A stretch of DNA of 64,000 nucleotides. Source: Octopus vulgaris. Its lineage: Eukaryota. Position 1 is the stretch's first letter, and the number at the start of each line of letters is the position of its first letter. Shown here piece by piece: positions 27,361-59,520 of the stretch. Under the pieces are notes generated by a model. The model made no database searches. It was given only the letters and a program-made list of their open reading frames with translations, and had not been told where the DNA came from. The DNA is taken from contig OX597822.1 in assembly GCA_951406725.2 (NCBI GenBank), forward strand, positions 108,128,001-108,192,000, in the 5' to 3' direction. The position numbers were made by a program, and so were the translations under genes.

Positions 27361-29935
27361 TATAACTTAGATAACTTAGATATGTTTCAACCAAAGATTG
27401 GTCCAGGCCATGTCTTACTTAATAGCACCACCTGATAGGATTATCTGAATCCTGTTTAAGTCAAGTTTTGTTTATGGTACACTCAAGTAGTGAGTTTGTG
27501 TTGGGTGAGTTGTATCCAATTATGGGTGGCTTATCTGGTATTCCTTGAAGGAATCTATCCAGACTCTGTTTAAAGTTGATGGGATCCTTTTCCTCTTTGA
27601 TCTCCCTCGGGACCATGTTAAATAGGGCAGGGCCTGTTGAGGAAAAGAAATTATGTTGCATTGTACAAGTATGCTGTGATCTTGAATTGGGCAGGGGACG
27701 TATGGTCCGTGGTCCCAGTCTTTGATGAACCTTGAAGCTAATGTTCAGGTCGTTTGGGCAAAGTTGGCGGTATATTCTCCACATCGTGCAAAAGATGTAC
27801 CGCTCACGGCGACGCTGATGAGAGTAGAGTTTCAAGGCTTTAAGGCGATCCCAATAATCGAGAGCAGCCATGCCTTCAATTCGATTAGTGAGTGCCCTCT
27901 GGGGTGATTCAATCCTCGAGATGTTTTGTCTTGTATGGGGAGACAACAGTGGGAGGAGAAAAGTGGTATGATGACACCTTGTTCTCTGGACCGGAAAGTT
28001 CTTAAGATCCAGGAACTCATCCTACGAGCTATATCGACCTTATTGTTGATGTGTGCACTCCAACTGAGATCGTCATCAACAATTACACCCAGGTCTCTGA
28101 TATTGTTAGAGGCTGTGAGCGGTTCCCCTGAAGGAAGAGAGTATGGCTGTTTTAGTGAGGAATTTCTTCCAAAATGTATCAGCTCAAATTTTCCATCGTT
28201 CAGTTGCATTTTGTTTCTGTCTGCCCATTGACTCACAGCATATAGATCAGACTGGAGTTGAGTTCGGTCTGCTTCTTCATTGACTATTTGCTGGAGCTTA
28301 GTGTCATCAGCAAATATTTTCAATTTGCAGTAATGTACGACACTGGAAAGGTCGTTTATGTAAATTATAAAGAGTAGCGGGCCCAAGACAGTCCCCTAGG
28401 GGACACCGCTGGTGACCTTTGCTGGGCTTGAGTGTACTCCATCACCTACAGCATGTTGTGTTATATTCGCCAGGAAATACTTAATTCAGTGTAGAACTTT
28501 TCCACGAATTCCAACATTTGCCAATTTTGAGAGTAGGATATTATGGTCTACCCTGTCGAACGCTTTACTGAAGTCAAGATATATGACATCAGAGTTTGAA
28601 CCTGTTCTCAAGGCTTTGAGTATATATTCAATGTGGTGTAAGAGCTGTATTAGACAGTCCCTGCCACAGCGAAAGCCATGCTGATTTGCATTTAGGAGTT
28701 TGTGGGTCTCCAGGAAGTCAGCTATCCTTGATCTTAACACTCTTTCAAACACTTTAATGATGTGGGAGGTGAGTGAGATTGGGCGATAGTTGAGTGCGAG
28801 GGATCTGTTTCCCTGTTTGAAAACCGGGATGACTGACTGTGATAGAAACTGTTTTGGTATATAACCTGCGTCTAACGAATTTGTCGAGAGGATGGTCAGA
28901 GGGACTGCAAATTGGTGTCTACATTCCTTCAGGAGACTAGCGGGGAATCTATCAGGGCCTACGGCAGAGTAATGTTTGACCTCATTTATTGCTGCTACGA
29001 TGTCGGTGGCAGTGAAGGTTATGTCTGAGATTTTATGTTGGGAATCAACTTCGTTCGCTTCTCTTACGTCGATATCAGTGGGAACACTAAAGACAGAGCA
29101 GTATTGTTTCTGCAGTATTTCTGCCATTTCTTTAGCATCGTGTTGGGGAATGCCGTTATCATCAATCAATGGCCCAATGGGTGAGACAGTGGTTCTATGC
29201 TTATTTGCATAAGAATAGAACACTTTTGGGTTCTGTTTTATGTTTTTGATTATCCACTGTTCCTCCACAGCTGTTTGATTTTCAATGGAGGTTTTCATAT
29301 CGGTCTGCAGATGAAGTTTTTCCAGCTCTAGCCTTTTCATTGTTGTTGAATGTGGATGTTGTATGTGGGAATATTTTAATTGGTTGATTTTTTTTATTGA
29401 GTCTTTTGATGTACCTGATGAGTGTTTGTTTTTCTTTTTAGGGAGCGGGTTTCTGTTTGTGCTAGTAGATTTTGTGGGAGCGTGTTTAGAGCATGTATGG
29501 GTGACACTGTTCACAAAGTTCTGCTATGCGGTCTCAATATGGGTGGAATTGTGAGTAAAAGACCAGTCTATGAAAGACAGATCCTTTCTGATTGCTCTCC
29601 AGTCCGCTTTGTGGACGTTTATGTTATCAAATGAGTGCCATGGAGTGGGATTGGCTGGTATGGTTTTTATATGTCGGGAATTAACATTGCAGAGTACCAT
29701 GTCATGGTCTGAGAGGAGAGTTTTTCCAACTGAAATACTGTGAACGAAGCTAGAGTGATTGGTCAATACCAGATCCAAGACCGTTTTATTCCGTCTCGTT
29801 GGTTCGAGCACTAGCTGACTTAGGAAGAATTCATCCATTAGATTAAAGAGCAGTTCTGCTGCTGCTCTGTCTGATGTAGAGCATTTGCTTAACTTCAGAG
29901 CATTTGTGGGCCAGTTCACATGAGGGAGGTTTAAA
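27361..29935 (-). mobile_element. 5'-truncated CR1-like LINE (APE C-terminus and RT), frameshifted, inserted in (TA)n
   Basis: LDLVLTN, SDH (endonuclease); NYRPISLTS, QHGFR, YLDFSKAFDRVDH, GPLLFIIYIND, FADDTK (RT); 3' tail (TATCTAAGT)n. Confidence 0.95.
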
Positions 29936-52049: not shown

Positions 52050-52674
52050 TATAAGCAAGGTCTACCGAAAGTTTTTCTAAAGCCAATATACTGAAATCCA
52101 CGTTTAATCCACTTGCTACAGAAAGTTGAACTGAAATTCGGGCAACTATACCTTTGGAACACTTAAATTCCGTTATCTCAATATTGAATCAATTTCGGAA
52201 TTAACACCATAAGTGTCGTTCGTCTTCAGTTAAGCTTACGAGAGAATATAAGTGAGATACTCATATGTGCCCCTGGAAAACAGCGGAAGCGAATAACACA
52301 AGCACATCTGAGTAACCCCGTTATATCCCAAAATAAATGTTCTTAGGTTAAGTCTCAGAACAACCTGTTGACTTGCCGCCGCCACATATTGTAGTGGTTA
52401 CAAGTCCCCCTGCAGCAAGCAGCAATTAGTGTACTGCTATTAAAAGGAATGTAGCCTTTTTCTCTACAGAAAAAAACTCCATCAGGAATTGTGGCAGTAT
52501 ATTAAAAGAACCTTTACGGTTAAATATTATAAATATAAGTATATTGGCTTTAGAAAAATAGCCCTTGCTTATAAGATATTTATAATTTTTAACCGTAAAG
52601 GTTCTTTTAATGTACTGCCACAATTCCTGATGGAGTTTTTTTCTGTAGAGAAAAAGGCTACATCCCTTTTAATA

Positions 52675-52675
<1 letters not shown>
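52044..52675 (-). mobile_element. PLE/retrozyme-like element: about 490-nt monomer plus inverted segment spanning the monomer junction
   Basis: 100-bp inverted arms at 52437-52536 and 52576-52675; the loop is the reverse complement of 52044-52092; (TA)n on both sides. Confidence 0.82.
52177..52234 (-). ncRNA. Type I hammerhead ribozyme motif
   Basis: cttaa CTGAAGA cgaacgacac ttat ggtgttaattcc GAAA ttgattcaa TA ttgag; the closing pair of stem II is C/C. Confidence 0.72.
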
Positions 52676-56258: not shown

Positions 56259-56329
56259 GTCAAGATAAAACTCTGAGTTTCAGATGCCGAAGTGGAAATC
56301 CACAACACCATCTCTTCGGTTATCTGGAC
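56259..56329 (-). ncRNA. Type I hammerhead motif (U4>C), family of 7242
   Basis: gtccagataa CCGAAGA gatg..gtgga tt tccac..catct GAAA ctcagag TT ttatcttgac. Confidence 0.6.
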
Positions 56330-56377: not shown

Positions 56378-56435
<58 letters not shown>

Positions 56436-56439
<4 letters not shown>

Positions 56440-56965
56440 AAAATATAAGGAATGGCCATAATAGGATATTCGACTCAATAGAAAGAGCAGCCAAACTCAA
56501 ACCGCTAATAGTTGCAATTCTGAAATTGAAAGAGAAATAAAAACGTTTACCCCTTCATCTCTGGACGATGCATAGTTTCGGCAAACCTTAGTAAACAAAT
56601 TAATTAAATTAAATTAAATGTATTTACAACTGGCGTGCCTCGTCAGCAGAGAAGCCAAGGACGAACATATATCCACGAAGCGATGGTAAGGAAGCCTCAA
56701 GTCTATATGCTATAAATTTTCAAAATCTACCGCAATCGCGCGGTCTTCTTAGCAGCAAACACAAACTGCTGATTCAACTTCAAAAGTAGCCAAAAAATCA
56801 TCAACTAACAAATACAAGGGTGGCAAAAAATTCTTGGTCCAGAGATGAAGGGGTAAAAGTTTTTATTTCTCTTTCAATTACAGAATTGCAACTATTAGCG
56901 GTTTGAGTTTGGTTGCTCTTTCTAGTGAGTCGAATGTCCTTTTATGGCCATTCCTTATATTTGTG
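56436..56965 (-). mobile_element. PLE/retrozyme-like element with about 130-bp inverted repeat starting at the HHR cleavage triplet
   Basis: Arms at 56436-56566 and 56837-56965; 3' end abuts (TA)n. Confidence 0.85.
56558..56652 (-). ncRNA. Canonical type I hammerhead ribozyme (predicted cut between 56564 and 56563)
   Basis: tctctg CTGACGA ggca..gtaaata..tgtttac..tgcc GAAA ctatgcatcg TC cagaga. Confidence 0.9.
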
Positions 56966-57064
56966 AATGTATATTATGTAGTCTTTGACTATCTTTTCTT
57001 TCTCACTGGACCGGTGGTGGCGGAGAATGTTTTCTAGAATTTTTTGTTATCCTTGTACTTGTTA

Positions 57065-57127
<63 letters not shown>

Positions 57128-59279: not shown

Positions 59280-59520
59280 AAATATAATATGTGACAATTA
59301 TTTGGTAGCCAAACTCTGAGTTTCGGTTGCCGATGTGAAAATCCACGCCACCATCTCTTCAGTTATTCGCCCATCGGAAAAACGCTATGAAAAATGACCC
59401 TTTATACAAAGGGAAATGACTGTGTTATTTATCGCTATTTATACAAAAGCGCTATTTGAATGACCGCTAATTAAGGTAAAGCGTAAGTGCGCCTATTCAT
59501 ACGTATACATGTGCGTTTGC
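59280..59520 (-). mobile_element. HHR-bearing short repeat (family of 7085-7340); HHR 59311-59368 with stem I 3' arm deleted
   Basis: gaataa CTGAAGA gatg..caacc GAAA ctcagag TT tggc; ends in (TA)n. Confidence 0.7.

Follow-up and report, generated by a model that had tools for sequence, protein, structure and literature searches.

Penelope-like insertions are described as carrying an inverted pLTR and a one-sided tail and as favoring microsatellites (PMC8557442, PMC3846280), a layout that has been attributed to reverse transcription beginning at either of two sites (PMC11167929). In the portions of these accounts considered here, the function of the hammerhead ribozyme in Penelope-like elements is called unclear (PMC8557442), in vitro insertion is reported not to require its cleavage, and for an Anolis element RNA-seq is reported to have yielded no reads that stop at the cut (both PMC11167929). 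A Penelope origin has been proposed for the animal non-LTR retrozymes (PMC7229834; bioRxiv 10.64898/2026.07.22.740005), where, as far as the main text of PMC7229834 goes, the word “inverted” is absent. In the R2 retrotransposon an HDV-like ribozyme cleaves at the precise 5′ junction in Drosophila (PMC3774820). For Penelope-like elements, the parts of the literature that our search covered did not reveal any study that places the 5′ ends of genomic copies relative to the hammerhead cut.

The locus analyzed here lies in a window of 64,000 nucleotides of Octopus vulgaris, by which we mean the whole stretch of DNA analyzed, and it is a non-autonomous insertion of the Penelope or retrozyme type, made of a 467-nt monomer arranged as two head-to-head arms, one of them tailed, within (TA)n. 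The target (TA)n tracts occupy 56381-56435 at the left end and 57066-57105 at the right. The short, tail-less arm (56436-56836, minus strand) covers the monomer from about -272 (-266 as scored in the junction analysis) to +128 relative to the cut, agrees with the family reference in 378 of 413 columns and reads through an intact cut site. The tail-bearing arm (56837-57065, plus strand, 229 nt) runs from -3 to about +227 with 214 of 246 columns matching, and can be aligned to other genomic copies up to 57064, with (TA)n beginning at 57066. The two arms meet at 56836/56837 with neither spacer nor microhomology. A reading made from the sequence alone had reported an inverted copy at 56837-56965; the 129-nt repeat is indeed there on the plus strand, mirroring 56438-56566 in 122 of 129 columns, but the piece really continues to 57065. 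The inverted repeat stops at 56965 because the short arm ends there, and what follows (56966-57065, plus strand) is a tail of about 100 nt that separates the two fixed 3′ ends, the distribution of 3′ ends in the family being bimodal. Two variants are common to both arms and co-occur in only these 2 of 157 arms, from which it follows that both arms come from one source lineage.

Several other features were noted in the window. Minus-strand 56268-56323 and 59311-59366 are two decayed copies of another hammerhead family, the former sitting between (TA)n tracts immediately to the left of the two-armed insertion. A 100-nt inverted repeat (52437-52536 and 52576-52675, 97% complementary, 39-nt spacer) ends in (TA)n and may be another two-armed insertion. 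A U6 snRNA copy (101 bits) lies at 21110-21214 on the plus strand, and a 345-aa open frame at 28489-29523 on the minus strand.

The minus-strand hammerhead at 56558-56652, which the sequence-only reading had called canonical, is borne out at the stated position and has an intact core. By its core and stems it is a type I hammerhead, for which cleavage after C17 is predicted. On the minus strand, stem I is formed by 56652-56647 with 56563-56558, CUGACGA occupies 56646-56640 and GAAA begins at 56579; stem II is long and AU-rich, and stem III contains one mismatch. From the numbering of the hammerhead core we take the scissile bond to lie at 56564/56563, such that C17 is 56564 and +1 is 56563. 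The core (CUGANGA, GAAA and UH) is intact at the locus and in 83 of the 105 arms that span the motif. Around it are three stems, stem I being open, whose pairs are retained in 77-83 of the 83 parsed arms, with stem III a palindromic 4-bp hairpin in 78 of them. The U.C mismatch in stem III of the locus copy occurs in 1 of the 83, and because of it the active fold costs more here, lying 7.3 kcal/mol above the minimum as opposed to 2.1 in a family-typical copy. Folding of the locus hammerhead gave z = -3.1, with 1 of 200 shuffles equally good. Since the copies are young, covariation is slight: double changes are few (five from G-C to A-U in stem II). A search of Rfam reported no hammerhead at the locus at either threshold. 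Among the data sets listed as containing the monomer, none is recorded as RNA. Contigs of four presumed-RNA runs cover the monomer piecewise, contigs being unable to reveal RNA ends. Across the genome the type I core pattern has 786 matches versus 102 for a control, and at least six hammerhead families occur among the first 30 loci of these matches; the other families that this search brought up were too diverged or too thinly sampled for 5′-end mapping.

Copies of the 467-nt family were sought genome-wide (2.8 Gb) by an exact 17-nt anchor situated 105 nt downstream of the cut. This gave 321 matches, of which 307 were mapped, and removal of seven duplicate junctions left 300 arms in 230 insertions; two of the seven (+17 and +22) may be independent recurrences, so that dropping them lowered the excess of ends described below. 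Addition of 37 arms found with a fuzzy anchor (3 of 40 candidates were dropped) brought the total to 337. The partition passed over a few arms, the older ones of 2130 candidate copies were left out, and 3 of the 14 matches of one copy search were not the element. Arms were followed upstream from the anchor to their 5′ ends, which are ambiguous by a few bases, and density was expressed as ends per 1000 nt at risk; three subfamilies were tagged independently of arm length. The monomer, as derived from tandem copies, is 467 nt long and non-coding, has one hammerhead per unit and is spanned entirely by 20 of the 300 arms. The 3′ ends of the arms fall into two groups about 100 nt apart, and of the 280 that are terminal 262 adjoin (TA)n. 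Where an inverted pair has two anchors, a tail arm is combined with a short arm in 51 of 53 cases, meaning that the tail is carried by one arm only. The 121 inverted junctions join arms head to head with variable 5′ truncation. A similar CCTTATATTT motif precedes both family 3′ ends (56438-56460, minus; about 57040-57065, plus) and is a candidate recognition signal for priming.

Plotting the breakpoints of genomic copies against the cut, as the sequence-only reading had suggested, yielded a non-uniform profile whose sharpest drop is at the cut, with 5′ ends present along the whole monomer (300 arms). Among the 337 arms, 39 ends lie in +1..+20 and 9 in -20..-1 (p 6e-5). The density is 4.4 ends per 1000 nt at risk at +41..+100, 9.5 at +21..+40 and 10.2 at +1..+20, compared with 2.7 at -20..-1 and 3.8 over -100..-1; the interval +1..+40 contains 83 ends where 35 are expected, which for 253 arms at risk is an excess of about 19%. 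Boundary +1 is the strongest drop of the 403, 383 and 363 boundaries scanned with windows of 20, 30 and 40 nt, respectively. The cut is nonetheless read through by 170 of the 175 arms that reach it. When one arm was taken per insertion (60 draws, 230 insertions) the median p was 1e-4 and the best boundary was +1 or -1 in 53 of 60 draws. Flank-joined arms alone gave 13 ends versus 1 across the cut, and the three subfamilies gave 21/4, 10/2 and 5/1 ends downstream/upstream of it. Base composition as a cause of the step is ruled out by a G+C content of 45% on either side.

At single-nucleotide resolution the picture is less sharp. Exactly at +1 end 5 of the 157 arms reaching this position (p 0.002 for an expectation of 0.9, and p 0.018 when the local rate is taken as reference; 300 arms), with two further exact +1 ends outside the anchor set (L035 and L045), and several single positions in the 300 arms are more extreme, namely +9 (7 ends), -250, -71 and -277. 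The window -3..+3 showed no enrichment (8 versus 5.1 expected, p 0.15; 300 arms), and the excess is spread across the 40 nt downstream of the cut. There are other steps, as at -41 (p 5e-4), implying that the assumption of a locally flat rate is not a perfect null. Taken on their own, the 37 fuzzy-anchor arms gave no step at 20 nt (3 versus 2), and boundary +1 falls to rank 9, 37 and 44 when junctions whose partner ends in +1..+50 are removed.

Sorting the 121 inverted junctions by symmetry shows where these ends are found. Near-symmetric junctions, with ends within 45 nt of each other, number 48 as opposed to 31 obtained by shuffling, and their deepest end falls in +1..+20 in 17 cases (7.7 expected) and in -20..-1 in 2. 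Across the cut the 73 asymmetric junctions, including that of the locus, do not show a step (7 ends in +1..+20 versus 6 in -20..-1). In 14 junctions, the locus again among them, the short arm ends at about -250..-284 and the end of the tail arm varies freely between -118 and +194; simple arithmetic puts at about 0.3 the chance that one of 14 such junctions falls within 3 nt of the cut. Family-wide, a second cluster of 5′ ends is seen at monomer -231..-290, shortly beyond the site at which the tail of the preceding monomer starts. Short-arm ends number 20 in 1260 nt at risk there versus 17 in 4824 at -101..-230, and tail-arm ends 11 in 1331 versus 25 in 5155; the short arm of the locus, with its end at 56836, falls within the cluster. 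Two primers acting on one multimeric or circular RNA would fit this distribution.

A second, unrelated hammerhead family with a monomer of about 535-545 nt served as a replicate, 96 of its 175 anchored arms being analyzed. It has 12 ends downstream and 4 upstream of the cut, the same direction as in the 467-nt family (p 0.079). The steepest fall occurs at boundary -2 (14 versus 2, p 0.005), which was picked after the fact. What places two ends at -1 and -2 is agreement with a TA flank or with a single base, and their real position may be +1 or beyond; an end exactly at +1 is seen in none of 41 arms. A hand tally of 124 rows overlapping the 96-arm sample, which left out three rows breaking at +18 and two duplicates, counted 19 ends in +1..+17, 7 in -4..-17 and 4 spanning the cut, with p ranging from 0.009 to 0.19 according to where the 4 ambiguous ends are placed, and 9 of the 19 downstream ends are at +15..+17, adjoining the anchor. 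From one listing of this family 12 of 112 rows were left out. Its subfamilies (L306, L312, L332-L421) swap stem I in step, GCTACA/TGTGGC in place of ATTATA/TATAAT, which suggests a maintained fold, and their cut triplet is GTC or GTA.

How is the junction of the locus itself to be understood? The homology between 56438-56566 and 56837-56965 begins abruptly at G56837, so the start at a GTC triplet that the sequence-only reading had remarked upon stands. That triplet, however, begins at -3, whereas the cleaved RNA begins at +1, which in the tail arm is C56840. The three extra bases were not accounted for by the partner arm when the two were compared, and base composition gives their chance match a likelihood of about 1%. 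It is conceivable, if improbable, that the tail arm was copied from cleaved RNA and gained GTC by chance or when synthesis jumped the nick to a 5′ product that was still bound. Five ends at -3..-5 genome-wide (the locus, C14 twice, and the copies designated C17 and L034), versus four at -6..-15 in the 337 arms, would agree with such an origin, as would the second rank of boundary -5 with the 40-nt window. Nevertheless, the density at -5..-1 equals the baseline (3 ends in 757 nt at risk in the 300 arms; 4 in 846, or 4.7 per 1000, in the 337), the short arm, which shares the source lineage, continues across a cut site that is intact, and the analysis offers no instance of a jump across the nick. 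A cleaved end is a weak reading of this junction because the arm holds three bases that the cleaved RNA lacks and because its class, the asymmetric one, shows no step. Ordinary truncation is the likelier origin. Hence the proposal that a self-cleaved end set the boundary is, taken strictly, not supported for the locus, which breaks 3 nt upstream of the bond in a class with 7 ends versus 6, and finds its counterpart in the step that the family as a whole displays at the cut.

With respect to this family-wide step, the main rival is an explanation that dispenses with cleavage. In it, stalling of the polymerase or fold-back of the cDNA, both at the 3′ foot of the folded ribozyme (stem I) and at purine-rich, self-complementary stretches within +1..+45, would make ends accumulate immediately 3′ of the motif. 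The 467-nt family does have peaks at +8/+9 and from +17 to +29, and the second family at +14..+18, all of them close to where stem I is predicted to have its foot; with the 30-nt window the scores of boundaries +5..+8 come near that of +1, and the excess resides mostly in near-symmetric junctions, many of which have 1-3 nt of microhomology. We nevertheless consider it less likely than cleavage, given that self-complementary four-base pairs number 38 at -60..-41, where ends are rarest, versus 13 in +1..+20, that the drop is present in flank-joined arms (13 versus 1), which need no partner, that seven ends in the 467-nt family lie exactly at +1 and none at -1 or -2, and that among the rows listed no +1..+20 end has the 5′ strand of stem I as its junction partner. 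Very improbable, in our opinion, is an artefact of mapping or sampling, in which AT-rich stretches displace the inferred ends and one family happens to present one lucky edge. Artefact-like steps do accompany the AT-rich stem II (-41), +1 is not significant in the second family and inferred ends are ambiguous by a few bases; the cut site, however, was named in advance, both of its flanks have 45% G+C and map cleanly, the arms were selected through an anchor that lies 105 nt away on the downstream side, and the step holds per insertion as well as per subfamily. We infer that cleavage, rather than the fold of the ribozyme, causes the family-wide drop, and the best reading of the excess is that about one template in five is cleaved RNA.

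On balance we therefore favor, with slightly better than even confidence, a two-armed insertion of a 467-nt hammerhead repeat into (TA)n, likely by a Penelope-type reverse transcriptase, with a junction at this locus that is likely an ordinary truncation and a family-wide crowding of ends shortly downstream of the cut that likely stems from a minority of self-cleaved templates. According to this model, the reverse transcriptase would write the insertion from two fixed start sites, with both target strands priming cDNA, one per site. Most templates, being multimers or circles, would be intact at the cut and would be read through; roughly one in five would end at +1, where the cDNA would run off. 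The run-off cDNA would then lose 0-40 nt before being joined to the other arm or to the flank. More generally, and as a tentative proposition that we rate somewhat short of even, Penelope-type hammerheads may cut in the germ line during mobilization, with about one-fifth of the templates being cut-ended and copied from both start sites and the run-off cDNAs being joined as near-perfect palindromes.

If this were true, the 5′-end profile of genomic copies would represent a fossil assay of in vivo ribozyme activity, applicable to any hammerhead family in an assembly. A 5′-end step at the scissile bond would constitute in vivo evidence that cleaved RNA serves as a template, albeit a minority one, and the role of the hammerhead in Penelope-like elements would become testable from assemblies alone. 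A single locus carries little weight in this respect; it is the family-level signal that matters.

We also looked for an autonomous partner of the family. GIY-YIG matches number 148 in the genome, several of them inside 781-aa frames with RT motifs. None of the 30 GIY-YIG loci examined has the 467-nt monomer as its own terminal repeat, and the autonomous partner was not found among them; at one of the 30 a 74-nt family end lies about 1.1 kb upstream. Shared internal sequence sought upstream of flank-joined arms amounted to 12 pairwise matches among a few loci, and this search did not find an ORF-bearing partner. L428 and L433 (1-1791 in each) are part of 781-aa frames that have RT motifs, a C-terminal GIY-YIG and many near-identical copies, and their 3′ flanks contain tandem repeats with no hammerhead pattern within 900 nt. 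In L429 about 800 nt separate a GIY-YIG match and an inverted pair that resembles copies of the second family.

Taken together, the 467-nt family shares with endonuclease-bearing Penelope-like elements, as they are portrayed in the parts compared (PMC8557442, PMC3846280, PMC11167929), the inverted 5′-truncated copy, the tail at one end and the two fixed start sites, and likewise the AT-rich or (TA)n target and the hammerhead within the repeat. It differs from the published elements in being devoid of an ORF and in having a tail of about 100 nt instead of 30-40 bp, and those accounts, in the same parts, do not relate the positions of 5′ ends to the cut. With animal non-LTR retrozymes it has in common, on the evidence of the portions compared, tandem non-coding units that each carry a single type I hammerhead, the monomer being 467 nt here as against about 170-400 there (PMC7229834; bioRxiv 10.64898/2026.07.22.740005); the family consists mostly of short two-armed or single truncated insertions, whereas retrozymes are arrays. 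For a ribozyme cut that sets a genomic 5′ junction, R2 provides the precedent in the part of that study considered (PMC3774820), yet the hammerhead cut would here shape at most a minority of the ends, with a spread of 40 nt. As far as the compared parts of the literature go, the element thus belongs to a class that is already known, the retrozymes or Penelope pLTR derivatives (PMC7229834, bioRxiv 10.64898/2026.07.22.740005, PMC4209133).
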